DNA of 61,831 nucleotides from Candidatus Hermodarchaeum yapensis (GTDB lineage Archaea > Asgardarchaeota > Hermodarchaeia > Hermodarchaeales > Hermodarchaeaceae), in NCBI GenBank assembly GCA_016840405.1, contig JAEOSK010000015.1:1-61831 (forward strand). Direction: 5' to 3'. The position numbers and the translations under genes are program-made. Shown piece after piece: positions 11,570 through 30,206 of this stretch. The notes beneath the pieces are model-generated. The model was not told the origin of the DNA. It did not search any database and saw only the letters and a list, made by a program, of their open reading frames with translations. Numbering within the stretch: position 1 is the first letter of the stretch; the number at the start of each line of letters is the position of its first letter.

Positions 11570-14500
11570 CTAACCGAAAAACGTGTCTAATCTACGCATT
11601 CCTATTGTATCTAACCATTCAATTCCTAACGCATCCAACACCTGCTCAAAGGTACTTTTAACGAGATCCTTGTACTTTGCGATATCAATATCCTGTGCCG
11701 TGGCTTGTTCAACAGGTTTTACGCCACCGGTCGTTTTAACATATGCAATAATATCTCCTGCGACAACTTCCTTACCTGCCTTTTGAAGCTGACGAGCCGC
11801 TTTCACATGTTGCGGTGTTGTCTTGACATACGCATTCAAGTTCTTCGTTATTTGCACGCGAATTGCCAAATCTTCCACCTGAAATTCCCGACGCTCCAAC
11901 ATCGTAAGTTTCTCTCGGGCAAGTTTGAGAATCCGGTTTTTCGCAGTCGTGAAATCATCAGGGTTACGAACCTGGCGAAGAATATTAATCATCTGCATAA
12001 ACGCCACTTGGAGAAAAGCGGGAGTATTGCGTTTCTTTCCTGTCAGTCCTTTGATGTCCACCTGCCCGTCTTTCGAAACCCCAAGGTAGTTCTTCTTGCG
12101 ACTGGATAAAGCAACATATCGATACTCTTTTTCAACATCTAATTCAACACGAAGTTCCTTCTCGCTAAAATCAATTAGTTGTTGTAATTGTTCTTTGGTC
12201 GGATTATCCAAAAATAGACTATCCGTATCACCATACAACACGGTTACGCCAATTTCCTTTGCTTTATCAATTGTCTGCGTAATCGCAAACCGGCCGACCG
12301 CTGTTATACTCTCAGCAGCAGGAGCACAGTAGAGAGGGAAATGTGAAGCCCCAAGCACACCATAGCTATTATGTGTTACAATGCCATTTGTTGTAACAAA
12401 CCACCCATTTCCTGTTTCTATATCAAATACAGGTTGAGGATTTGGTTCAGTAGTAATAGATTTAACACGAGCAAGATTGGTGCCGTTATATTCTATTATT
12501 CCGCGGTATTTTCGTCGATATTGTCGTCCATCAGTTTCGACAATACGGGTGATAATTGGATTAATATGAACGGAAGAGAATCTCCCAATTCCGCTTAGGA
12601 GAGTAAGAAGATCCCGAACTAACTGGGAGCTGATAGTGCTGTATCGACGTTTTCCTCTCCGATTAAAAATACCATCGCCCTTGAAGTAACTTTCAATTAA
12701 TGATAAGGCACGATCTTTGTTTAATAAATGGAGAGGGATGCGTTTATTACTAGCATGCGTTCCACAAAGAGCACCCATCATGGCGGCTAGAACATTAGAG
12801 CGGATAGTAATTGATTTGCCTCCATAGCTAGCAAAGGGCCAGGACAACCGTTCTAAGAGATGAATGATTTCTTGATAGTTTTCCGGATTTTTTCTCTTAG
12901 ACTGTGTAATTACAATGCGATTTTTCTGGCCGTTTCCCTCAGCTATATACCAACCCATAAGTTCGAAGAATTCAGAACTAAGTGGGATGGAAATATTCTG
13001 CCAAAAGCCAGGATCTCGCGTTTTTCGAGAAATTTTAATGAGTAGATCAGCTTTTGCCCTTCGAATAATGTCCTTTTCTTTGTGAGAAAGTTCCTCCCAT
13101 TTTAGTCTGTACATTTCTTGAGCTTTGTTATATTGAGATTTCTGATTAAATAGTTGGATAAGCGGATGCTTGGTAGTTTGTGATGTTCTATAGGAAAATC
13201 GCTTGTAAGTGGTACGTCTCATTCCGATGAGTAATGGGTTAGAGCTGATCAAATCTGGAATGAAAATACGTTTGGGAGGTGATGAGGATAGAGGGATTCG
13301 ATTGCAGAGGAGGAGTTCATCTCCTATATTTAATTCATCAGCTGGAACCTCTGAAATACTAAATTCCCTACCATACCGTCTTCCTTTATGAGTTGAAAAA
13401 ACAGGAACAACATGGTTGGAAGTACATCTTAATTCTCTACCATCAGCTAATTTTATTTTCAAAATTTTATTGGTTCCAGTTTCTGCCAATCCAAGAATAG
13501 GAACAAAAAATGGAGTACCAAAACTTCCATTATTTGAATCACTATTTACAGACAGTATTTCATAGTTTGACCAATCATTTTGAAGAGAACTGATTTTCCT
13601 TTTTAATATTTGACCCTCTGAATTTCTAACAAAAACCTCTTCGTCATAGGGTAAACAGGCATTGAGGAATACTTTGAGGGCTTGTTCGACGACGCTGAAC
13701 CAGTTGCGTTGGGAGGGAGATATGGTTTTGTCGTTGGCGCGGGGTTTGAAGTGTTCGACGCGGACATCGCGGATGAGTCCGATGAGTTGGCTGGTGATAC
13801 CCTCTCGTCTAGTACATACCCAATGGGGGGTTTCGGGGACGAGGTTGTTTTTGCATTCTGGGTGATCGCATCGAACGGTTTCGTAACTAAGGTTGTAAGC
13901 CTTCATGATACTTGGATAGAGGCTGTTTCCTGTCACTGATGGTTTTCCATTTCTACGAGCGATTATCGTTCCATTAGGGACAGAAACACACCATACGAGT
14001 CCTCGATAAGGGAGTTTATTTATCCGTGGATGTTGTTTGCTGAAAACATTAATCCGGTTGTAACTAACAAAAGCCCGGTAGCTGGTATGATTCTCGTAAA
14101 ATTTTCCATCAATTTTACAGTTTCGGATTTCTTGGGAAACCTGACAACCATACCCAAGTTTAAGAACCAGTTCTTGAAAATCATCAACAAGTTTTTTCAC
14201 AGTTGAGGTGAAGGAATAGCATTTCCCGTTATTCCAACTTCCATCTCCTAGAATCATGCTTTCAAAAAGCAACATTAGATATTTTTTCTCAAGATTAAGG
14301 ATAGAACGAGGAATTCCCTTTTGATTTTCACCTAGTTCGGCGGTTAACCATTTTCGAAGTTCATTAGTAAATTTCAAGTTATTTATGGCAAAAGTGTGGT
14401 ATTTCCGACCTTGACCACTCTCATATTCATGTTCGTAGAATTTCAATCCAAGAAGGGTTAGAGCTTTTCGAATTTGTTGAAAGTTTCGTTTCTTCGATTG

Positions 14501-16570
14501 ATAAATATGAACACTACGTTCTCTGATTGATCCGTCGGTAATTAGCCACCCGAAGAATGGTAGAAATTGTTCAGGTGAATATGTGAAGTCTCCAAACGTT
14601 ATAGGTTGGGAAATTCCGTTCCAAATACCAAAATGAGGAATTCTAAACCAATAACGGTCATAGAGGGTTTGTGCTTCTTCAAATTCGAAACTTTCTCTCC
14701 AACTCATAGAACTCCTTTGATTGTCCCTTCTATGATATACCATTCTATGATTGGGAGTAACTAGTAAGTCAATACCTTTAGTTGAAAAATGGTACATATT
14801 TCCTTCATAGTGATATTCATGTAGTTTATCAAGTGATTGGTATTCAACCTCGTTAGATATGGGGTTGACAGTAGCAATGGTTAATGGAATTTCTTGATTC
14901 AGCAAGGATTTGATTGAATTGAGGGAGTGCCAGCCATAGTTGGTTAGAATTTCGGAATCATCTGATACACAAGCGAAGTCCATGACCATGACGTTGAAGT
15001 GAACGCCTTCTTTGGGTTCGACGACGATGGCACCCATGTATTTTTTGCCTTTTATGATGGCTTCAGTGACGGCTTCACCCTTGAAGGCGGAGATTTCATC
15101 TTGGCGGGGGATCAGGTAGTTGTTTTGTCGATGTGCATAGTACAGGAGACTTCGAATCCAATTGGAAACTGCTGTTCGAGTGAAATCATGCAAGCCTTGA
15201 TGAGAAAGCCGCATAAGCAGAAGAATCAGGTTCATGACTAAGTCGTTGTCGAATTGAGAAAGGCGCATAGTGAGATGGGAGTCCTGCCAGTTGTATTCCG
15301 CCAGAAGATGAGCAGGTATTTTGCTTATCTGGTCTGGTAGCTGAAGTTTGCCTTCACCGAGAAGGGCTTGACTGAGATTTTCTAATCGAACTTCCTGGTA
15401 TCGATTGCGAAACGCGTATATCTGGATAGACCGGTTGTGGAAGAACCGATACAGATCGATATGGACGCCGTATTCTAGGCTAGCTTCAGGGTTTCCACGA
15501 AAGCCGCCTCGCATTCGAATGGGAACATCCGAGGCAGGGATATCTAGTTTCTTTGCTCGATTGACAAGATACCGTAAATCAAAGTTATCGCCATTAAAGG
15601 TTATCAAAAGCGGTGTTCGCCAGATAACTCGAAAAACAGTTTCAAGGAGAATCCGTTCTTCATCTAAGAATTCGATTTTAACCGTTTTGGGGAGTTTTAA
15701 TTCACTGAGGTCGTCTGCATTCCGACGCAGCATATAGACCCGTCCAGTTCCAGTGTCGTCGACGATTGACACCGAAATAACGGGTTGAGGAGCGGTTTCA
15801 GGGTCGGGAATACGGTCTATGAATTCAGATTCCACTTCAATGTCCAAGGCGAGGCGGGGCAGATAGGTTGCCTGGGTAAGGAAGAGGGGGAGATATTCTT
15901 CGATGAGTTTTGACAGCTCCTTGTCCTTCGCGAACAGTTCCCGAATTTTTGTTGCATCTTCGGTAGAGAATTCCTGTGGAACTGGAACTAACCCTTTGTC
16001 CTGGACGCGGTAAAGGAGACCGGGTGTAAGATTTCGGTCCATCGTATAACACTGGGTATAACGGATGTCTGCTTCCCAACTATGATCCCGCCCTAACTTT
16101 TCTCGAATAGAGTCGTGTCGACCACCGATGGCCAGGGGGTCTTTGGCCACAATCACCGTATATTGTTGCTCTTTATCTAACAGCAGGTTATATTTTGTAC
16201 TCTCTTCAAGTTTTAAGAACCCTGAGTGACCAACGACAGCGTTGTGCTGTGAAACATCTTCTCGTGTTAAATCAGTCAAACAGTAAGGATGGTGCCCAGT
16301 GTTATCCAACCATTCATAGATTTCGCCTTTTACCGTATCGTAGATTTTTATTTTGGCTAAGCCTACATCGCCTTGATAGTCGATGTTTACCAAGACACCC
16401 GGAGGTCCAGACTCAGGAACTTTTGGATAGTCTGATGGGCGAATAGGCTTATCCTTACTTTCTATGAGGATTTGTGTTAGTAAGGAGAACATTTCTTGCT
16501 TTTTTGGACTAGAACTAGCACGGGAATTTGCTTTTGAAGATTTCATCCAGTCCGAGAGATTTGATGGCAC
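11570..16570 (-). CDS. polB1: DNA polymerase B1 precursor with two inteins (mature ~887 aa)
   Basis: DNTGHHPY, KDPLAI, WEADIRY (B1 signatures), exonuclease DIE and TFNGDNFD, DFA|SLYPS, KVFLNA|SYG, YGDTDS, KKNY, C-terminal PIP-like LDTFF. Confidence 0.95.
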   Translation of the reverse strand: MPSNLSDWMKSSKANSRASSSPKKQEMFSLLTQILIESKDKPIRPSDYPKVPESGPPGVLVNIDYQGDVGLAKIKIYDTVKGEIYEWLDNTGHHPYCLTDLTREDVSQHNAVVGHSGFLKLEESTKYNLLLDKEQQYTVIVAKDPLAIGGRHDSIREKLGRDHSWEADIRYTQCYTMDRNLTPGLLYRVQDKGLVPVPQEFSTEDATKIRELFAKDKELSKLIEEYLPLFLTQATYLPRLALDIEVESEFIDRIPDPETAPQPVISVSIVDDTGTGRVYMLRRNADDLSELKLPKTVKIEFLDEERILLETVFRVIWRTPLLITFNGDNFDLRYLVNRAKKLDIPASDVPIRMRGGFRGNPEASLEYGVHIDLYRFFHNRSIQIYAFRNRYQEVRLENLSQALLGEGKLQLPDQISKIPAHLLAEYNWQDSHLTMRLSQFDNDLVMNLILLLMRLSHQGLHDFTRTAVSNWIRSLLYYAHRQNNYLIPRQDEISAFKGEAVTEAIIKGKKYMGAIVVEPKEGVHFNVMVMDFACVSDDSEILTNYGWHSLNSIKSLLNQEIPLTIATVNPISNEVEYQSLDKLHEYHYEGNMYHFSTKGIDLLVTPNHRMVYHRRDNQRSSMSWRESFEFEEAQTLYDRYWFRIPHFGIWNGISQPITFGDFTYSPEQFLPFFGWLITDGSIRERSVHIYQSKKRNFQQIRKALTLLGLKFYEHEYESGQGRKYHTFAINNLKFTNELRKWLTAELGENQKGIPRSILNLEKKYLMLLFESMILGDGSWNNGKCYSFTSTVKKLVDDFQELVLKLGYGCQVSQEIRNCKIDGKFYENHTSYRAFVSYNRINVFSKQHPRINKLPYRGLVWCVSVPNGTIIARRNGKPSVTGNSLYPSIMKAYNLSYETVRCDHPECKNNLVPETPHWVCTRREGITSQLIGLIRDVRVEHFKPRANDKTISPSQRNWFSVVEQALKVFLNACLPYDEEVFVRNSEGQILKRKISSLQNDWSNYEILSVNSDSNNGSFGTPFFVPILGLAETGTNKILKIKLADGRELRCTSNHVVPVFSTHKGRRYGREFSISEVPADELNIGDELLLCNRIPLSSSPPKRIFIPDLISSNPLLIGMRRTTYKRFSYRTSQTTKHPLIQLFNQKSQYNKAQEMYRLKWEELSHKEKDIIRRAKADLLIKISRKTRDPGFWQNISIPLSSEFFELMGWYIAEGNGQKNRIVITQSKRKNPENYQEIIHLLERLSWPFASYGGKSITIRSNVLAAMMGALCGTHASNKRIPLHLLNKDRALSLIESYFKGDGIFNRRGKRRYSTISSQLVRDLLTLLSGIGRFSSVHINPIITRIVETDGRQYRRKYRGIIEYNGTNLARVKSITTEPNPQPVFDIETGNGWFVTTNGIVTHNSYGVLGASHFPLYCAPAAESITAVGRFAITQTIDKAKEIGVTVLYGDTDSLFLDNPTKEQLQQLIDFSEKELRVELDVEKEYRYVALSSRKKNYLGVSKDGQVDIKGLTGKKRNTPAFLQVAFMQMINILRQVRNPDDFTTAKNRILKLAREKLTMLERREFQVEDLAIRVQITKNLNAYVKTTPQHVKAARQLQKAGKEVVAGDIIAYVKTTGGVKPVEQATAQDIDIAKYKDLVKSTFEQVLDALGIEWLDTIGMRRLDTFFG
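12368..13657 (-). mobile_element. Intein 2 (430 aa) with LAGLIDADG homing endonuclease, in PolB motif B
   Basis: Starts CLPYDEEV after KVFLNA; block B CTSNH; MGWYIAEG and YFKGDG; ends VFDIET..VTHN followed by SYG. Confidence 0.92.
13925..14971 (-). mobile_element. Intein 1 (349 aa) with LAGLIDADG homing endonuclease, in PolB motif A
   Basis: Starts CVSDDSEILT after DFA; block B VTPNHR; FGWLITDGS and MILGDGS; ends VTGN followed by Ser of SLYPS. Confidence 0.92.
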
Positions 16571-17144: not shown

Positions 17145-18520
17145 GTGAACTGCCCCTACATGAGTGCAAGGGCTTCCATCGAGTCCACTCCCAAGGGAAC
17201 TTTGGGGAGGGCTGTGTGTCGATGCAAGCCATTCCAAAATGTTTGTAATGGCTCCCCGTTCACAGGGGATTGCTGCAATAGGAACCGCACCATCAGGTTA
17301 ACCGCGGCATTCTGGTCTCGGTCAAATGAGGTTCCACAATCGCATTGAATAACTCGCTCCGATAACAGCCGATTTCTTATCTTGCCGCAAACACAACATC
17401 GCTTAGTAGTTTGCGCCTCGTCAATTCTTATTACTCTTTTACCTACTTTTTTAGCTTTGTAGGTTAAGAATTGGGCGAACCGTCCCAAGAATCCAGTATT
17501 TTGTAGTGAATGGTGTAATGTTCGAGTGGCCGCATCCTGTCGCTGACATCCTGAAGCTGACTTTTTCTGCGCCATACTTTTCACCGCCAAATCACCGATG
17601 ATGATAGTGCGGGCTCGTGTATTCATCACGACAACCTTAGAAATCTTATGCTGGAAATCTCGCAGCTGGTTGACAAGTTTATGTCGCATCTTCACCCATT
17701 TACGCTGATAAGACCACCATCGATTACTGTACTTCTTACAATGATCTCGCCGAGATTGAAGCTCCCGTAGTTTGTCTTTCCAGTATCGGCCTGGTCGGTG
17801 ATTGGGAATTTGAACAAACCTTCCCTTCAGGTTCACGGCTGTTATCAGATTAATTACTCCCAAGCCTATGGCTTGATACTGACCATTATCCTCAAATGGA
17901 GGGACTGATACCTCGCAGGTGATGGCGACAAACCAACTATTTCGTCGATTCTGAAAGAGTTCAACCTGCTTGATCCGGTCGTTGAGTGGCGGCAACCATG
18001 ATAATGCAAACTCTAGTACAACGCCAGAGGGGTGTCGGTGAGCAAAGCGAATCCGTTGGTTCTTTAAATCCAGAGAGAATCCGGATTGATTGAAGCAAAG
18101 AGTGGTGAAGTAGCGATTGCCTTTAAAACGTGGAGATCGAGCTTTAGTGTCACCATTGCGTCAGCGGGCAAAGAATGATTTGAAATCAGCATCAAGGCGA
18201 CGCAACGTCATTTGAAGTACTTTGGAGTAGACCTAAGCATATTCTGGATATTGGACTTTGAGGGCTGGGAGGGAGTTTTGTTGCTGCACATAGGTGATGT
18301 GGATGCGCTCTACAGGTGGCTTTTCGCGATTTATTGTCCACTGATGGAGCCTTTCAGCAAGGGCAAAGTTATAAAGAAGGCGACATTTTTCAGCGAGAAT
18401 CCAAAGAATTTGGGCTTGAGCTTTTGTAGGAGCGATAGAGATTTTGTATGTCAATAGCATCTGAGTCATACTGAGATGCGGAAAGTCATGATGGTTTTTC
18501 TATTTAGGGGAGGGGAATAG
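17145..18520 (-). mobile_element. Solo tnpB element (IS200/IS605 family, IS1341-like) copy 1
   Basis: Left boundary GTTAT|CTA; right end GCCCTTGC-N6-GTAGGGGC-AGTTCAC hairpin; no tnpA. Confidence 0.75.
17156..18469 (-). pseudogene. tnpB: tnpB pseudogene (two in-frame stops, RuvC-I Asp to Gly)
   Basis: LLTYKI..CRLLYNFAL start, stops at EYA*VYSK and FAR*RNG in one frame, AIGLG instead of AIDLG, CCVCG/CDCG Zn finger, DRDQNAA. Confidence 0.88.
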
Positions 18521-18620: not shown

Positions 18621-20366
18621 TTGGCCTCGGCACAGCCTCCAGCAGGGTTGACTATTTCAATCAAGGAACACGAACATACTCTTCTCAACTCGGATAACAC
18701 TATTACCCGATTTGATCCCCGTGGGCAGGTTTTCGTGAAAAATCAATCACGCAAATTTGCTGTGTGGGATGCAGAACTCGAACTAAACCCACAGAACCGA
18801 ACAACACTGGGACTTTCCGCACTTGATATTGGGCGGTTAGACCCAATGTGTGAGTGGGAAAAAGACTTCATTGTAAAAGAAATCGAAGCACCAATGCTCC
18901 TACTTACTGAAGCAATTGATACATTCTCAGAACGGGTGGGTGTAAATCATGCCCTTGTGTTTGAATACAAAATGCCCGTCGAAATTAGCTTGAATATACG
19001 AAACCATTCAGGATCACCCATTCAAGATATTGTTGTAACAAAAGAGATGCCACCTATCTTCAAAGATATTGATCTCCAAAAATCACAGATAGGTAAAGTG
19101 GAATATGATTCACGAGAAGGACAAGTTGTGTGGAAAATCAAGGAGTTGCCTCCCGAACAAATGGCGGTTCAACGGATTCGGGCAAGTATCACAGCGGAAG
19201 ACCCAGAGCCTAAATCCGGTGGAAAAGTTCACGTTACCTATAAAATACCAGATGTTGTTCGGAGCACTCTTGTTCCAACCCTTAATGCTTCAACCGAGAC
19301 AGAAATCAACGTCGAAAAAGAAGAAAATTCAATGCAAGTGGGCAATTGGCGATGTAAAGCTTCACTAACTAATTCTAGTGAATTTCCGATTCGGATTAAA
19401 CGCGTGCAAGTAGTCCTTACAGCACCTGATAACGAACTTCTCTATGAAGGAACACCTAACCATCGACTAGAATCTGGTGAGGTCTGGGGCCATGAATTTG
19501 AAGTCCAGGCTGAACAACCGGAATTTGATATCATTGCCCTTTCCTCAGTTGAAGCGCCCATCAACCAAGAAATCGTGGGAACTATCGAAAAGGCTGAAAC
19601 AATTTTTCCAGTGCTCCGTATTGAAGCTAATAAACGTGTTGAACCCCTTGAATTATTGGCTTGGGAACCAGCACCTGTAGCTGTTACATTACAAGTCAGG
19701 AACACTGGCAGCATAGAGTGTGACGAAATTACATTCAATGACACACTTCCTCCTGGGTTCGAACCTCCCGATAATACTCAAATTCGCGTAAGAGTCGGCG
19801 AGAAGCCCATAACTCGAAGCCTAAAAGTCAGTATCCGGCCCAAAGATCGAGACGTGAAACTTCCTCACACATTAACAATTCAACTCCATGACTTAACTGA
19901 GAATCATACACCCATTAAGCCAGGAGATACCGTAACAGCGAATTATATCACAGTTGCTCGAGCACCGAAGCCGAATCATGAACATCCATTACCAGCAGTT
20001 ATCGAAGCGAATACTTTTCCACCCGGACCAAATGCTAGGACTGATATCCCTGAAATTATGGCCCCAGTGATAAAAGTGCGATCAGTGGTTCGAAAGCTTC
20101 GAAAGACCCGAACCGTTACGCCAACTTCTGAAGTTGGTGAATTATTAGTCACCGTCACTTTTGTTAATGAAGGAGAAACAAGCCTTCAAGACCCAGAACT
20201 ACAAGACCTCATACCACCAAACTTTGAATATGTAGGAGTACCTTCTGGTACGCCCGAACCCACGCTTCGAGATACACCGAATGGCACCGTTGTAACCTGG
20301 GTACTACCGGCTATGATGAGTCGAGAAAGCTTCGTGGGTCGATACAAATATCGCCCCAAAGAATAG
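18621..20366 (+). CDS. Cytoplasmic multi beta-sandwich protein; N-terminal part resembles mu-homology domain (mu-adaptin/delta-COP), C-terminal DUF11-like Ig repeats
   Basis: GLTISIKEHEHTLLNSDNT..GQVFVKN and IQDIVVTKEMP..GKVEYDSREGQVVWKI patterns; VxNxG..DxLPPGF repeats; no signal peptide or TM. Confidence 0.5.
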   Translation: MASAQPPAGLTISIKEHEHTLLNSDNTITRFDPRGQVFVKNQSRKFAVWDAELELNPQNRTTLGLSALDIGRLDPMCEWEKDFIVKEIEAPMLLLTEAIDTFSERVGVNHALVFEYKMPVEISLNIRNHSGSPIQDIVVTKEMPPIFKDIDLQKSQIGKVEYDSREGQVVWKIKELPPEQMAVQRIRASITAEDPEPKSGGKVHVTYKIPDVVRSTLVPTLNASTETEINVEKEENSMQVGNWRCKASLTNSSEFPIRIKRVQVVLTAPDNELLYEGTPNHRLESGEVWGHEFEVQAEQPEFDIIALSSVEAPINQEIVGTIEKAETIFPVLRIEANKRVEPLELLAWEPAPVAVTLQVRNTGSIECDEITFNDTLPPGFEPPDNTQIRVRVGEKPITRSLKVSIRPKDRDVKLPHTLTIQLHDLTENHTPIKPGDTVTANYITVARAPKPNHEHPLPAVIEANTFPPGPNARTDIPEIMAPVIKVRSVVRKLRKTRTVTPTSEVGELLVTVTFVNEGETSLQDPELQDLIPPNFEYVGVPSGTPEPTLRDTPNGTVVTWVLPAMMSRESFVGRYKYRPKE

Positions 20367-21476: not shown

Positions 21477-22049
21477 GTGATGCCTGGATCAAAAGACGCC
21501 AATATCGATGATGTTTTCCGACAAATGACTGAAATCCTCGAGAAATCGCTAACACGAATTAATGAGGTTGAACAGCATATCTCGAAGGACTTAGAAAGTA
21601 TTCGTCGCCAGTTAGATGCAGTTGGGGTTCTCAAAGATAACATTGCGAATCTGAATAACCGCATTGATTCATTGAGTAAGAAACTAACTGAACTCAGCAA
21701 ATCAGAACCACAGGAACTTAACCGAATGATGCTAAAAGCCATCAGCGAACTAGACAAGCGAATGCAAATGTTCACTGTGTCTGAAGTGTTGTCCCGACTT
21801 GAATCCGGAACAAATTATTCTCCACGACCAAGAACTAGTGCACCTATAGTAGCGCCAGTTCCCACTGAAAAACCCAAGAAAAACGTATCAGAACCACCAG
21901 CAGAAGCCCCAAACACTCCTGTCTCTGAACCCGTTCCTGCAACACCAGCCAAAGCGGATGCAGTGTCAGAGACCGTTGGATCTGATCAGCCTTGGCGTGA
22001 ACGAATGCGAGAAAAGTATGGATTGAAAAAGAAGCCCGGAAAGGTTTGA
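21477..22049 (+). CDS. Coiled-coil protein with Pro-rich linker and basic C-terminal helix
   Basis: Heptads over ~aa 10-110, P/A/E/T-rich linker, terminal PWRERMREKYGLKKK. Confidence 0.75.
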   Translation: MMPGSKDANIDDVFRQMTEILEKSLTRINEVEQHISKDLESIRRQLDAVGVLKDNIANLNNRIDSLSKKLTELSKSEPQELNRMMLKAISELDKRMQMFTVSEVLSRLESGTNYSPRPRTSAPIVAPVPTEKPKKNVSEPPAEAPNTPVSEPVPATPAKADAVSETVGSDQPWRERMREKYGLKKKPGKV

Positions 22050-22062
22050 TTTCTGGTTTGGA

Positions 22063-22551
22063 TTACTTCTTTGATTTGGTGGCAGGGGATGGATTGTTCT
22101 TCTGCAGCGCAAGGTAACGCCTTATGAGACGCTCCATTCGTAAGCAGTATAATGCGTCTTGAGCAGCTTGGAGAGTTTCTGAGAGTAATTCTAGTGTTTG
22201 TGCATCGGCGGAAGAAGATCTGAGATCACCTAAGGATTCAAACCCTTGAGCAATAGTAGCCGCTAGTTGAGAATAATGTGTTACACTGCTGCGGCGTTGT
22301 TCCCTTAGGTTGGAAAGTAGTTCTTGGAATTGTGGTTCAATAGTTTCTAAACGCCCTTTAACTAGTTGGTCGATTTGGATGATTGTGTCTTTGAGCGTTG
22401 AGACTTCTTGAGTGAGCTCTGTGATACGGTTGAAAAGGTTATTGAAAGCTTGAGTGACAAAGGGAATCAAAGATTCGTCTCTGGAAGTGGCAGCCGGTGG
22501 ACCTGCTTCAGGCGGCGATGGGGGTGGAGTTGGAGGGGGTTGTTGAGTCAC
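22063..22551 (-). CDS. Coiled-coil protein with N-terminal polyproline tract
   Basis: QQPPPTPPPSPP then heptads; GGTGA RBS before GTG; 14 bp after upstream gene. Confidence 0.8.
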   Translation of the reverse strand: MTQQPPPTPPPSPPEAGPPAATSRDESLIPFVTQAFNNLFNRITELTQEVSTLKDTIIQIDQLVKGRLETIEPQFQELLSNLREQRRSSVTHYSQLAATIAQGFESLGDLRSSSADAQTLELLSETLQAAQDALYCLRMERLIRRYLALQKNNPSPATKSKK

Positions 22552-22565
22552 GTTAAATCACCTTG

Positions 22566-22955
22566 TTAGGTTCCTCCCTTTTGTGAAGTTTCAAGCTGTT
22601 TTACTGCTTCGAGCACTTCATCTAGGTTAATTTTGTTGGTTAATTCATCCACGATTTCGATTACGACACGAATAGCTTCTTCGATATCTTTGAGATTGCT
22701 GAGCTCCTTGGCACGATCAACTTCTGCAATGAGTTGCGTTTCAACAAGTTGTCGCTGTTCTCTGAATGTCGTGACATCACGATGAATTTCTTTAGCCGCT
22801 GAATTGGCTTGTTTCACCGTTTTTTCCATCTGCTCCACTAAATCTTGTGATAGTTGCTCCATAGCCGTTCGAGTGGCCGTTAATTGTTCAGCAAGATCTT
22901 CAATACCCTTTTCGACCTTCGCGATTGCTTCTTTCACTGTAGCAGCGTCTGTCAT
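22566..22955 (-). CDS. Small all-helical coiled-coil protein (129 aa)
   Basis: Continuous heptads; ATG at 22955 with purine-rich RBS, 14 bp after the actin-like gene stop. Confidence 0.8.
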   Translation of the reverse strand: MTDAATVKEAIAKVEKGIEDLAEQLTATRTAMEQLSQDLVEQMEKTVKQANSAAKEIHRDVTTFREQRQLVETQLIAEVDRAKELSNLKDIEEAIRVVIEIVDELTNKINLDEVLEAVKQLETSQKGGT

Positions 22956-22969
22956 TCTTTTTCCCCTAA

Positions 22970-23989
22970 TTACATTTTTGCGGCACCTAACCAACTACTG
23001 TAAACTGGGTGTTCCAATTCATAAACCTTGACGGTAAGATGTGGCATTTGATCTTTTATCTCGTTTTCAAGCCGTGATTTCAATCCAGGTAGCATAGATC
23101 CTCCACCAGAGAGCACAATATTTGCTGCGAGTTCAGCGCGTACACTAGTATCTACACGTCGTAATACCTCGATAATAGCATCAGTTAAGCCTTTGTCTCC
23201 AACACCTAAAAGCGTTGGTTGGAATAGAACCTCTGGTGCCTGCCAGGGTAAAGAGCCAATAGAGAGCTCTGTTCCCTCGTAAGAGAAATTACTTGTTTCA
23301 CTGAAATTTTCGTCTACCGCAACAGGATACACTTTGCATAAGGATTGTTTAATTTTACTAATTGCCTCTCCGTTTTTCGCGATTTCTGAATAGATTGCTG
23401 CGTAATTAGAAATGCCGGCCTCAGCTTGATGGAGTAGGAGCTTTCGAATTTCAGCAGATACAAAGAAACTACCCGTAATGAGGGACAAAATGTGTTCTTC
23501 TAAGAGGAATCCCCGATAAATTGGAGTGACAAATGTCACTGTATAGCCAATATCGATAATCAATCCTGTTTTTCGCCCAAAATAGCCCCAAGTTAGGACT
23601 TGTTGAATTGCGGCATCGACATGCAAGCATGCAAGGGATTGTTGGAGTGTTTCACAAAGTGCTGTAACTAGCCCTGGTTTTGATTGGGGGAAAATCAAGA
23701 GTGTTAATTCTAAGTTTGCACGGTTTTGGTTGAGTTGTGGAAATTTCTCAATGGCATAATTACACAGTTCACTCACCATGAAGAAGTCTTTGTGTACCAT
23801 CCCATCTTCAAAGGGAAAATGCCAGGCGCTTCTTCCGGGGTCAAGGTTGTGAAAAACCGGGTTACCACTGCTGCGTGTGGTGCTTTTGAGTGCAGCAGGC
23901 ATGACTAAGGGCGTAGGATGTTGTGGTGGACCACATTTCAGGTAGCCACTGCCCAGGTCAATGATTACATTCAATGGTGGTTTATTCAC
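22970..23989 (-). CDS. Divergent actin-related protein 2 of pair
   Basis: IIDLGSGYLKCG, FPFEDG, IQQVL, TGLIIDIG..VTFVTPIYRG, IKQSLC, APEVLFQPTLLG, DTSVRAELAANIVLSGGGSMLPGL, YSSWLG. Confidence 0.9.
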   Translation of the reverse strand: MNKPPLNVIIDLGSGYLKCGPPQHPTPLVMPAALKSTTRSSGNPVFHNLDPGRSAWHFPFEDGMVHKDFFMVSELCNYAIEKFPQLNQNRANLELTLLIFPQSKPGLVTALCETLQQSLACLHVDAAIQQVLTWGYFGRKTGLIIDIGYTVTFVTPIYRGFLLEEHILSLITGSFFVSAEIRKLLLHQAEAGISNYAAIYSEIAKNGEAISKIKQSLCKVYPVAVDENFSETSNFSYEGTELSIGSLPWQAPEVLFQPTLLGVGDKGLTDAIIEVLRRVDTSVRAELAANIVLSGGGSMLPGLKSRLENEIKDQMPHLTVKVYELEHPVYSSWLGAAKM

Positions 23990-24103
23990 AAGAAAGTCTA
24001 GGAATGATGTTTGAAAACAGTTTCTATCACTTTGAGCCCAGCTTGTGAGTTTTTCGGGAATATGTACTTCTCAATTTACTTTCAGAGTCGTGGTGATATT
24101 CGT

Positions 24104-25129
24104 TTATTTCTGCTTAGACACCGGTTCGACGAGGTGAACGGCACATTGCCAAGCAAAAGAAAGGGCGTCCTCTAGACCATATACGTTGATTGGTAAATGC
24201 GGGAGTTTTCGTTGAAGCTCCAATTCTAACCGCTCTCGGAGCCCTAGGATCATTGATCCTCCGCCTATGAGCACGATATCGTTTGAGAGTTCCCGTCTTA
24301 TTGTGATATCGACTTGTTCAATCGATTCGATAACCGCATCGACAATCCCGGTATCACTTATGCCGATTAATGATGGATCGAAAAGAACTTCGGGTGCTCG
24401 CCATGTAACGGTTCCCAAAGGGATATTGAGATTCTTCCGCCGGTAGTTCCATTCTCTGGGCGTGGTCTTATCACGAGGATCATGACGAACCTGACAGAAG
24501 TTACGTTTGACATATTCAACTGCCTTTACATCTGTGGCAAGTTTAGCATAGTCGGAATACCGAGTTGATTCTTTTGCCATTTCCTCAAGAAGTCGACGTA
24601 GCGCAGCTGAAACATACAGCCCTCCTACTGCCGTATCGATGATATGTTCACGAAGTAAGAACCCCTGATAGATAGGAGTTACTAGCGTAACTGAATGACC
24701 AATATCAACGACCAGTCCTGTGTGTTTTTTCAGGAAGAGAAGTGCAAGCAGTTGTTGATACGCTGCAAGTAATTTTCGGCATCCGAGTAGCGCACGAAGG
24801 TCGTCACACACTTGATAGACATGGTTTGGATCAACTGGAGAAAAGACAAGAAGTTGTACTTCAGTGGCAACCCGTTGATGGCCTCCAAGACCTAAACGAT
24901 CGAAGATACCGAGAATTAACGGTTTTAAAACATCAGCTTCCGGAAGATTCCCATTTTCAAGGGGAAAGAACTTCCCCGCACGTGTAGGATCCAACATGGT
25001 AAGGTATTGATCACCCATCTTATCGTCCGTGGCTTTCAGATAAGCTGGCATGATTTGAGGTTTAGATTGGTTGGGGTAACCGTATTTGAGAAATCCAGTG
25101 CCCAAGTCGATGATCAATTGATTTTGCAT
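24104..25129 (-). CDS. Divergent actin-related protein 1 of pair
   Basis: IIDLGTGFLKYG, FPLENG, YQQLLAL, TGLVVDIGHSVTLVTPIYQG, VKRNFC, RAPEVLFDPSLIG, DITIRRELSNDIVLIGGGSM, FAW. Confidence 0.9.
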   Translation of the reverse strand: MQNQLIIDLGTGFLKYGYPNQSKPQIMPAYLKATDDKMGDQYLTMLDPTRAGKFFPLENGNLPEADVLKPLILGIFDRLGLGGHQRVATEVQLLVFSPVDPNHVYQVCDDLRALLGCRKLLAAYQQLLALLFLKKHTGLVVDIGHSVTLVTPIYQGFLLREHIIDTAVGGLYVSAALRRLLEEMAKESTRYSDYAKLATDVKAVEYVKRNFCQVRHDPRDKTTPREWNYRRKNLNIPLGTVTWRAPEVLFDPSLIGISDTGIVDAVIESIEQVDITIRRELSNDIVLIGGGSMILGLRERLELELQRKLPHLPINVYGLEDALSFAWQCAVHLVEPVSKQK

Positions 25130-25161: not shown

Positions 25162-25977
25162 TCAGGGTTGTGTAAGTAGTGTGGAATAGGGTAATGAGGG
25201 CTCAAGGAAATTAAATGTAACTTTAGGCTGTTCAACTCGCAGGATTTGTGTCAACCGACTCATTCCGGGAATCTCAGTGGCGACCTGGGGAAGGGCAACC
25301 AGTTTCACTTTGAGTTGACTTGCTTGCGTTGCTAGTTCATGGGTAATGTGACCAGTGAGATAGGTATCATATCCATGCTCCCATGCTAGATGTAGCCATT
25401 CAGAATTGATGCCTTGACCGGATACGATTACAAGGTGTTTTACTTCATCTTCAAGGTTTCCCACATAATCAACTGAAGTTACTTTCAGACGCTTTGAGAC
25501 ATATTGAATGAACGCCTTAAAGCTAGTATCCTTAGGCACTGAACAGACGCGCCCCAAGGGCATAGCCGTCCCCTTTATTGGCGTTTTGAACACATCGTTT
25601 ACCTTGAATCCTAAGGTATGTGCCAAAACGTCATTCATACCTCCATCGACCATGGCCCAATTATAGTGAGCAATATACACAGTCATATTTCGCTTCAACA
25701 ACTGTTGAAGGAGTAGTTGTGGTAGCCCAGTGAATCGAGTTGTAGATGATAGAAATGGAGATCGATGGGCAATAAGAAGACTAGCTCCCTGTTCACCGCA
25801 TTGAATGACAACTGGAATGGTGATATCAACGCAAACCGCCACTGATGAGAGGCGTACTCGTTTCTGTTTTGCCACATCACTCACACCAAGAATAACACCA
25901 TTAGCATCACCATCGGGAACAAATATTGTTGGTGCTAATTTTTCCAAGTTAGCAATAACAGCCCGCAATGTACCCAT
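25162..25977 (-). CDS. Nif3/YbgI-like protein with degenerate metal ligands
   Basis: LEKLAP..D.NG, LLIAHRSP, YIAHYNW..GGMND, LGRV, YLTG, ATE.PGM. Confidence 0.8.
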   Translation of the reverse strand: MGTLRAVIANLEKLAPTIFVPDGDANGVILGVSDVAKQKRVRLSSVAVCVDITIPVVIQCGEQGASLLIAHRSPFLSSTTRFTGLPQLLLQQLLKRNMTVYIAHYNWAMVDGGMNDVLAHTLGFKVNDVFKTPIKGTAMPLGRVCSVPKDTSFKAFIQYVSKRLKVTSVDYVGNLEDEVKHLVIVSGQGINSEWLHLAWEHGYDTYLTGHITHELATQASQLKVKLVALPQVATEIPGMSRLTQILRVEQPKVTFNFLEPSLPYSTLLTQP

Positions 25978-29018: not shown

Positions 29019-30206
29019 TCAAACGGTCACCGAATATGGGTGTAACCCCACACCCTTTATCCCGTCCACCACGAAAGCTTCCGGGACTGCTTTACGCCCA
29101 ATATTATAAGCTCCATTCACATCTGCATTGATGTGGACTCCCTGCGGTGAGCGGAACAATCCACGTACCAGTCGCTTGCCCATATAGGTCTGGTGATGTT
29201 TAATCGGTTCTGTGTCGAGGAAGCTCACGTTCGATGTATGGCTCTCATCCACTACCGTCACCTCTATCCCTACCAAAGCAGCCTTGTATTGAATTTGTTT
29301 TACTAGCATCAAGAACGGAATACTCACGAAATTCTGGTTAGTGCGCCTACCCATCTTTAGTTGTTGTTTCCATGTTCTGTTATATCAAATCACGATTTGA
29401 TCAAAATCGAAATTCAGGCAATAATTGATGACTCGCCTTGATACCTTGTGAAAGAAATCAGTAATTTTGTTTGATCGCTTCAGCCGCAAGCACTGAAGCC
29501 ATATAGTTGGACCAACAAGACTCTGTTGATTCAGAAGGGATGTGAGCCGGGCGCGTTCCTTGTTATAGTATCGATTGATGGATTTGACAACCCCGCCTTT
29601 TACGCGCCAGGGGGGCAAACCTGCATTGTTGACCACAGTTATGAAGTTATTCAATCCTAAATCAATGCTAATGACATGACGCGAATCTAGTTTGAAATTA
29701 ACAGGTGTCTTTTCATATACGATTTCTAGGAGATAATGATTACCTCGCGGCAAGAGTCTGATCTGACGGAATCGTCCGACGATGCGAGTCTTGATAGGTG
29801 GTACTTGGGCTTTTTTTGGAAAAATCAGGAATCCGTTTCTAATACGACATTGCTGATTCGTAAATATCACAATTGATTCGCCGTTTTTAGGTTTGTATCT
29901 TGGTAACCGTGGGCGACCAAGATACTTCTCGGGATGAGCCCACCAATCTTTGATCGTGATGAAGAAAGCGTTCCAGTTCTGATCCAGTAATCGAAGCACC
30001 TGTTGAGCAGCGTGGGCAGGAAGATTCTGGTACGCTTTGGTGGTCTTAAGGAGGTTGTACAAGTCCTTATACCGTGTCCATCGTCCTTCTTTGATAAACT
30101 TCTGACGGATGTGATAATTGGCTAAGTTATAGAGATTCTTCGCTAAATGGCAGAGTCGAGAGAGCTGAGGGGAGGGTCGAAGTTGAATTCGTTCTGTAAG
30201 CTGCTT
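29019..30206 (-). pseudogene. tnpB: tnpB pseudogene copy 2 (GYN..WKQ-type clade; start codon ATG>AAG, internal TGA)
   Basis: AGGAGG RBS then AAG-QLTERIQ..LCHLAKNLYNLANY; SIDLGLNN; IVI*YNRTWKQ; VDESHTS; RGLF; INADVNGAYNI. Confidence 0.87.

Follow-up and report, generated by a model that had tools for sequence, protein, structure and literature searches.

Gene cluster at the locus

The stretch of DNA analyzed here, all of which is referred to below as the window, comprises 61,831 nucleotides of contig JAEOSK010000015.1 (assembly GCA_016840405.1) from the Asgard archaeon Candidatus Hermodarchaeum yapensis and includes a compact cluster of five genes encoding two divergent actin-related proteins (Arps) and three coiled-coil proteins. 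Four of the genes are on the reverse strand, namely, those for ArpA (24104-25129; 341 aa), ArpB (22970-23989; 339 aa), cc1 (22566-22955, with an ATG at 22955; 129 aa), and cc2 (22063-22551; 162 aa), and the fifth, cc3 (21477-22049, forward strand; 190 aa), converges on cc2. The successive intergenic gaps are 114, 14, 14, and 13 bp, the last one convergent, and the open reading frame (ORF) calls thus bear out the order, strands, and spacing given in an initial annotation of this DNA, which interpreted the cluster as a heterodimeric Arp module with dedicated helical partners that form a three-chain bundle, possibly an analogue or precursor of nucleator or capper complexes.

Comparison with a close relative indicates purifying selection on each of the five genes (dN/dS 0.05-0.17). 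A housekeeping gene of the NIF3/DUF34 family (25162-25977, reverse strand; Pfam DUF34_NIF3, 136 bits) lies 32 bp upstream of ArpA and is probably the first gene of the transcript that includes ArpA; ArpA and ArpB are probably cotranscribed with cc1 and cc2. Scanning the locus for promoters and terminators gave results at the level of shuffled sequence, with a bacterial consensus applied to an archaeal host. The host genome (2.7 Mb, 86% complete) carries three actin genes, ArpA, ArpB, and a true Lokiactin on another contig (C30), as well as, away from the Arp locus, one gene resembling profilin and two resembling gelsolin. Close homologs of the locus come from assemblies labeled Hermodarchaeota.

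ArpA and ArpB are trimmed members of the actin family

Both Arps match the Pfam Actin profile (PF00022; 113.8 bits for ArpA and 121.7 bits for ArpB vs a cut-off of 27), matches to the MreB profile fall below the cut-off, and all four actin motifs named in the initial annotation were located. The AlphaFold2 model of ArpA (pLDDT 91.5, pTM 0.90) has the four-subdomain actin fold, and the fold search places it nearer to actin (top match, Z 35.3, rmsd 3.2, 313 aligned residues) than to MreB (Z 25.6) or ParM (Z 20.2), with Arps and crenactin at Z 28-32. The assignment to the actin family rather than to MreB or ParM therefore stands, and so does the paralogy of the two proteins, which are 38% identical across 333 aa (E 2e-82) and share the same deletions. 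In a sequence search of the PDB, the top matches of ArpB were to Arp2 (96 bits, vs 95 for an Asgard actin and 88 for yeast actin), and the Arp2 and actin scores are nearly tied for ArpA as well; searching the ESM Atlas with ArpB recovered generic actin clusters only.

Comparison of 13 ArpA, 12 ArpB, and 4 other, single-copy Arp sequences with 17 Lokiactins, compiled in a motif table, delineates what has been kept and what has been lost. The Hermodarchaeial Arps retain the phosphate-1 loop, with the equivalents of Asp11, Gly13, Gly15, and Lys18, along with Gln137, Asp154/Gly156, the hydrophobic plug, and the adenosine-binding GG. The subdomain-2 stretch, in contrast, consists of 29 aa vs 41 in Lokiactins, that is, 12 fewer, so that there is no D-loop; 6-23 residues follow the conserved Trp (6 in ArpB) vs 34 in Lokiactin; the phosphate-2 loop is degenerate, with the equivalents of Asp157, Gly158, and His161 replaced; and the equivalents of Arg183 and Glu214 are replaced as well. 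Subdomain 4 contains an insertion of about 8-9 aa, and ArpB lacks part of the cleft that binds WH2 and HSA helices (actin residues about 349-355). The Arps are only 21-30% identical to Lokiactin and diverge faster, with a mean identity of 60-67% within one class vs 77% for Lokiactin across the phylum. Neither ArpA nor ArpB is of the Lokiactin type: they belong to a separate clade and lack a full subdomain 2, the C-terminal segment, and the DSGDG..H loop. Among the other Asgard ARPs compared here, those whose chain stops with the actin domain retain, in most cases, a tail of 20-35 aa.

The long-pitch contact of F-actin is made by the D-loop together with the C-terminal segment. Read against the established structure of actin, the deletions and replacements in the Arps imply the loss of this contact and of part of the profilin/WH2 surface, and these sequence features suggest proteins that would be non-polymerizing, probably ATP-binding, and weakly hydrolyzing. 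An opposite interpretation is that ArpA and ArpB, or the single Arp where there is only one, self-polymerize or alternate in a minimal, MreB-like filament, the coiled-coil genes being unrelated neighbors or simple anchors. Such filaments would be compatible with an actin fold that is intact and with the retention of the hydrophobic plug, the phosphate-1 loop, and Gln137, and prokaryotic actins, MreB and ParM among them, do polymerize without a D-loop or a C-terminal tail. However, the degenerate phosphate-2 loop with its lost His161, the insertion in subdomain 4, which falls at a filament contact, and the evolutionary rate exceeding that of Lokiactin make a filament of this kind improbable.

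The Arp duplication is internal to the class Hermodarchaeia

In a quick maximum-likelihood tree (IQ-TREE) of 70 Asgard actin-family sequences, with no eukaryotic Arps included, all Hermodarchaeial Arps group together (SH-aLRT 100); the stem of this clade measures 2.15 changes per site, and the ArpA and ArpB clades are nested inside it. Each of the 15 genomes of the host genus has the Arp pair, which contig ends divide in three of them, and two metagenomic lineages have it as well. A single Arp occupies the same slot in the four genomes of the sister genus (one of them cut by a contig end) and in two further metagenomic lineages, and the searches made in other Asgard families yielded no ortholog of the truncated Arps. 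Because single-Arp relatives hold the same slot, the duplication is internal to the class and the heterodimer is not obligate. In one genome of the host genus (G006), moreover, ArpA and ArpB are separated by a gene (L035 7695-8561, forward strand) for a 288-aa protein that has a CxxC in its N-terminal part and matches nothing in Pfam. The phylogeny thus supports a distinct Arp clade but not an ancient split between A and B, and the proposed heterodimeric Arp module does not hold as an obligate unit.

Elsewhere in the phylum, some actin-family ORFs are extended. Two of them, from a genome of another family (L149 and L152 of G020, family f3; 696-754 aa), have a long C-terminal extension with a hydrophobic C-terminus, and two more from Helarchaeota-type genomes (L136 and L137 of G296 and G239; 777-853 aa) also carry long C-terminal extensions.

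Three paralogous coiled-coil proteins

The products of cc1, cc2, and cc3 are related to each other. The all-helical cc1, which belongs to no known family, is a colinear paralog of cc2 (end-to-end alignment, HH probability 96%, 135 columns), and cc3 is a shorter paralog (HH probability 78% against cc2). In cc2, the best conserved of the three, a Pro-rich N-terminus precedes two helices (residues 28-109 and 114-152), and modeling of this protein alone yields two successive helices, of 82 and 39 residues, with a short break between them and no globular core (pTM 0.37). The "polyproline" that had been ascribed to cc2 is a stretch rich in Pro, with 11 of the first 30 residues being Pro and a longest run of 3 (up to 6 in relatives). 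This Pro-rich head is confined to part of Hermodarchaeia, where it tracks the ArpB-type lineages. By analogy with the polyproline binding that has been reported for Heimdall and Thor profilins and is absent in others (PMC8410842), the head might possibly recruit profilin.

The architecture of cc3 comprises a helical N-terminal region of about 110 aa, a variable linker rich in Pro, Ala, and Ser, and a conserved C-terminal motif (21993-22040, forward strand), which consists of an amphipathic helix followed by GLK. In all cc3 homologs, the C-terminus consists of a disordered linker and, after it, a short motif whose conserved sequence differs by lineage: the helix-GLK motif is invariant in Hermodarchaeia, and other lineages carry different conserved motifs. 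The spacing resembles the helix-LKK arrangement of WH2, but no WH2 match to the cc3 tail appeared in Pfam up to E 10, short motifs of this kind being easily missed. The protein ends a few, mostly basic, residues past the motif and thus has no central helix with an acidic-Trp C-terminus. The motif also resembled, below significance, the last part of the central helix of complexin (Synaphin; 13 residues, E 0.08-0.14), and convergence of the cc3 tail on a bundle-binding helix is conceivable.

Profile searches of the three proteins against the PDB and Pfam retrieved only coiled-coil noise, such as apolipoproteins and designed bundles, and searching the ESM Atlas with cc2 gave matches below 0.9 and generic helical ones only. 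Neither the WAVE, Abi, BRK1, and WASH families nor, in Pfam, HSA occur among the listed matches of cc1, cc2, and cc3. We also considered and rejected SNAREs: no aligned homolog has a hydrophobic anchor, and the syntaxin matches were coiled-coil noise. For BORC/BLOC-1, the matches were likewise generic, that to Pfam BLOC1_2 (E 0.08) being at noise level.

Given that three paralogous long helices are kept as a gene set across classes, and in some lineages as an operon, a hetero-oligomeric rod is the simplest reading, and we consider it fairly probable that cc1, cc2, and cc3 form such a coiled coil. The three-chain helical bundle suggested in the initial annotation is accordingly plausible in that the helical proteins are paralogous and travel together. 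A prediction of the cc1-cc2-cc3 complex, made with our own alignments and no control runs, scored 0.01 against a mark of 0.32 and is evidence neither way.

The coiled-coil trio recurs in many Asgard archaea without a neighboring actin

Iterated profile searches recovered cc2 relatives, at E 1e-5 or better, in 114 of the 301 Asgard genomes; the profile was built from the same families that it then matched, and gene order serves as an independent check. The convergent arrangement of cc1 and cc2 facing cc3, with no actin gene, recurs in families f7, f18 (Freyarchaeum deiterrae), f2 (Odinarchaeum yellowstonii), f20, and f30 and in two further assemblies; two of the families with this order, including that of F. 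deiterrae, are Jord-type. In Odinarchaeum, cc2 (L091 8251-8652, reverse strand) has an apparent ATT start and was missed by standard ORF calling. Helarchaeota-type genomes have codirectional cc3-cc1-cc2 operons with gaps of 14-28 bp, Loki-type families have a two-gene version of the set, and the module is also present in a 4.4-Mb single-contig genome of family f23. Searches of 29 genomes of Heimdallarchaeaceae (f4), 76 of family f6, 21 of f21, 11 of f13, and 11 of f27 turned up no member of the cc2 family, although divergent coiled coils may escape detection. A cc1-profile match beside Lokiactin in family f3 was rejected as a weak match to a short protein with no trio genes around it.

No actin gene was seen in the neighborhoods of the trio in at least six Asgard families other than that of the host. 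Five of these genomes (G053, which is a single contig and 100% complete, G024, G030, G019, and G066; completeness 91-100%) encode the trio and only one actin, a distant Lokiactin, so that the reading of cc1, cc2, and cc3 as dedicated Arp partners is not supported. The slot upstream of cc1 is variable: it is filled by Arp in Hermodarchaeia and by sulfur-relay or membrane proteins in some lineages. In Jord types (L082 6801-7469; L090 9218-9907), cc1 is preceded by a gene for a 220-235-aa protein that combines roadblock-like and winged-helix regions (Robl_LC7 only at E 0.12), and in GCA_048940975 (L170 1748-3679), the position of the Arp is taken by the gene for a Ras/Rab-like small GTPase, 57 bp from the trio on its upstream side.

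These distributions bear on the suggestion that the locus is an archaeal precursor or homolog of Arp2/3 and its WAVE/WASH-type nucleation factors. The resemblance is that of two Arps in tandem, of Arp2 as the top PDB match of ArpB, of three paralogous helical chains that recall the WAVE/Abi/BRK1 bundle in outline, and of the succession of coiled coil, Pro-rich linker, and helix-LKK in cc3. Against this, the A/B duplication is confined to one Asgard class with single-Arp relatives, and ArpA and ArpB group together, in the tree without eukaryotic Arps, rather than as Arp2-like and Arp3-like subunits of ancient divergence; the nearly equal Arp2 and actin scores do not discriminate; Arp2 and Arp3 retain the C-terminal segment; cc3 shows neither a WH2 match nor a VCA-like acidic-Trp tail; the listed profile matches contain no WAVE/WASH-type family; no ARPC-like gene is present within the Arp locus; and the cc2 family did not turn up in the Heimdallarchaeaceae searched. 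A nucleator or capper precursor, for which a Hermodarchaeia-only clade on a very long stem gives no support, is highly improbable.

Synteny and the case for a dedicated complex

In every Hermodarchaeia locus examined, an Arp gene lies directly upstream of cc1, without interruption. The gap is 13-21 bp in the host genus and one other lineage, 21 bp or an overlap in the single-Arp metagenomic lineages, and 109-280 bp in the sister genus. The cluster is conserved in all Hermodarchaeia examined, and in the other Asgard neighborhoods seen, the trio has no actin gene close by. Moreover, the Arps and coiled-coil genes are embedded in a larger conserved block that runs from PolB through a mu-homology gene, a queuosine-salvage-like gene, cc3, cc2, cc1, the Arp(s), NIF3, which adjoins the Arp wherever the contig extends that far, RsmB, and ThrRS to a peptidase. 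Since this surrounding block is as well conserved as the Arp-cc1 adjacency, synteny within the class is weak evidence of partnership, and tight spacing is no proof of it either, given that NIF3 is only 32 bp from ArpA.

Nevertheless, it is possible, if on balance unlikely, that the Arp or Arps form a dedicated Hermodarchaeial complex in which the barbed-end cleft binds a helix or the tail motif of the trio, in the style of Arp7/9 or actin/Arp4 on HSA or of Arp11 and the dynactin shoulder, linking the rod to the ends of Lokiactin filaments. Apart from the adjacency, which extends to the single-Arp lineages, such a complex is favored by the fact that the sole insertion within the cluster separates ArpA from ArpB rather than ArpB from cc1, by a cc3 motif that is invariant only where an Arp is present, by a Pro-rich cc2 head that follows the ArpB-type lineages, and by the profilin-like and gelsolin-like genes of the genome. 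Yet the unrelated housekeeping genes are equally conserved, the gap widens in the sister genus, the slot is taken elsewhere by unrelated genes, the tail features arose once and so carry no statistical weight, and ArpB lacks part of the very cleft that would be required.

Several other features of the neighborhood deserve mention. Two genes from cc3, at 18621-20366 (forward strand), the window encodes a 581-aa protein with adaptin mu-homology (PF00928, 39.5 bits) and DUF11/Ig-like repeats, which is kept in the Hermodarchaeia loci that reach it and was absent from the trio neighborhoods seen in other lineages. The PolB gene (11570-16570, reverse strand) contains intein and LAGLIDADG inserts that vary among relatives, and there are two fragmented TnpB-like elements (17156-18469 and 29019-30062, both reverse strand); insertions of these kinds interrupt the conserved block elsewhere, in two other genomes (G010 and G012). 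Genes for E2 and E1 at 48-1498 represent the end of a ubiquitin-ESCRT cluster (L093 4319-11745: UEV-Vps23, Vps28, Vps22, Vps25, and a probable Vps4), which in one genome (G001) shares a contig with the Arp locus, at a distance of about 20 kb. Directly upstream of UEV-Vps23 is a gene for a 178-187-aa coiled-coil protein (L093 6722-7258 and L094 6494-7057, both forward strand) with a weak, local match to the cc3 profile (E ~1e-7), possibly a distant cc3 paralog, a Vps37-like partner, or coiled-coil noise.

Discussion

The reading that we favor, with modest confidence, is that an ancient coiled-coil rod module was joined in Hermodarchaeia by a trimmed, non-polymerizing Arp that was later duplicated and is probably cotranscribed with cc1 and cc2, without the five proteins constituting an obligate unit. 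The Arp locus would then consist of two layers of different age and would not be an ancestral Arp2/3. The older layer is the gene set of paralogous long-helix proteins kept across much of Asgard diversity. These proteins would most likely come together as a rod, a parallel hetero-oligomeric coiled coil, in which the disordered tail of cc3 and its terminal motif dock a partner specific to the lineage; where there is no Arp, the rod would have to act by itself or together with Lokiactin or other proteins. The younger layer would have begun when a copy of actin in the ancestor of Hermodarchaeia shed the surfaces on which actin-type filaments grow, came to lie between NIF3 and cc1, and subsequently duplicated to give ArpA and ArpB. 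The Arps would most likely serve as ATP-binding scaffold or end-binding subunits that do not polymerize, either as monomers or as an A/B pair.

A number of considerations weigh against this interpretation. The polymerization of MreB and ParM means that its absence in the Arps is something we infer; assembly of the trio is likewise deduced from the gene set and paralogy; and the tree comes from a rapid run that excluded eukaryotic Arps. In addition, both the unbroken and mostly tight Arp-cc1 adjacency and the acquisition by cc2 and cc3 of tails found only in Hermodarchaeia could signify a dedicated partnership. A more elaborate scenario, which we regard as doubtful, is that Hermodarchaeia independently built an Arp-rod complex by recruiting the trimmed Arp, later an A/B heterodimer, onto the ancient heterotrimeric coiled coil, with the lineage-specific tails engaging Lokiactin and profilin. 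Were this the case, archaea would have arrived by convergence at an analog of dynactin or of the Arp-HSA modules.

If the binding of the Arps to the rod is real, the best functional analogy would be with Arp7/Arp9 and actin/Arp4 on the HSA helix of SWI/SNF, RSC, INO80, and NuA4, which also involve a divergent, non-polymerizing pair with degenerate phosphate-2 loops and a long-helix partner, and to which the ArpA model is close (Z 31.4-31.6). Those proteins, however, function in nuclear chromatin remodeling, keep the C-terminal segment, have large insertions, and are of independent origin, and no HSA similarity was detected here. In dynactin, Arp11, which caps the filament end, has a reduced subdomain 2. 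The Arps of Hermodarchaeia share this reduction (Z 28.1 for the ArpA model against Arp11) and the small helical partners, but cc1, cc2, and cc3 have no sequence link to p50, p24, or p150, and the locus lacks a conserved polymerizing subunit akin to the Arp1 of the dynactin mini-filament. BORC/BLOC-1, a possible analogy, is similar in its small paralogous helical subunits, and in some lineages, the trio adjoins roadblock-like or small-GTPase genes, but the Pfam match is at noise level.

Divergent, patchily distributed Asgard ARPs have been described (PMC9834061), five asgardactin clades are recognized (PMC8850707), and extra lineage-specific actin paralogs arising by gain, loss, and duplication are reported to be common in Asgard genomes (PMC9834061, PMC8850707); the passages searched name no Hermodarchaeial clade. 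ArpA and ArpB share with Lokiactin and other Asgard ARPs the actin fold and the phosphate-1, Gln137, and adenosine motifs, and differ from them in low sequence identity, the shortened subdomain 2, the missing tail, and the tandem duplication. We found no account of the truncated Arp clade or of the coiled-coil trio in the literature searched, the coverage of which was incomplete and did not extend to supplementary trees, in agreement with the initial annotation, which knew of no description of this arrangement.

The Hermodarchaeial Arps appear to represent an actin that was stripped of its filament surfaces and duplicated within a single archaeal class, in parallel with the origin of eukaryotic Arps. 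Of wider relevance is the coiled-coil trio, a module so far without annotation that is shared by Hermod-, Jord-, Odin-, Hel-, and, as a pair, Loki-type Asgards. The genes of the Arp locus are small enough for joint expression, and should the Arps prove to bind the rod, they would form the first Arp complex from archaea to have helical subunits dedicated to it.

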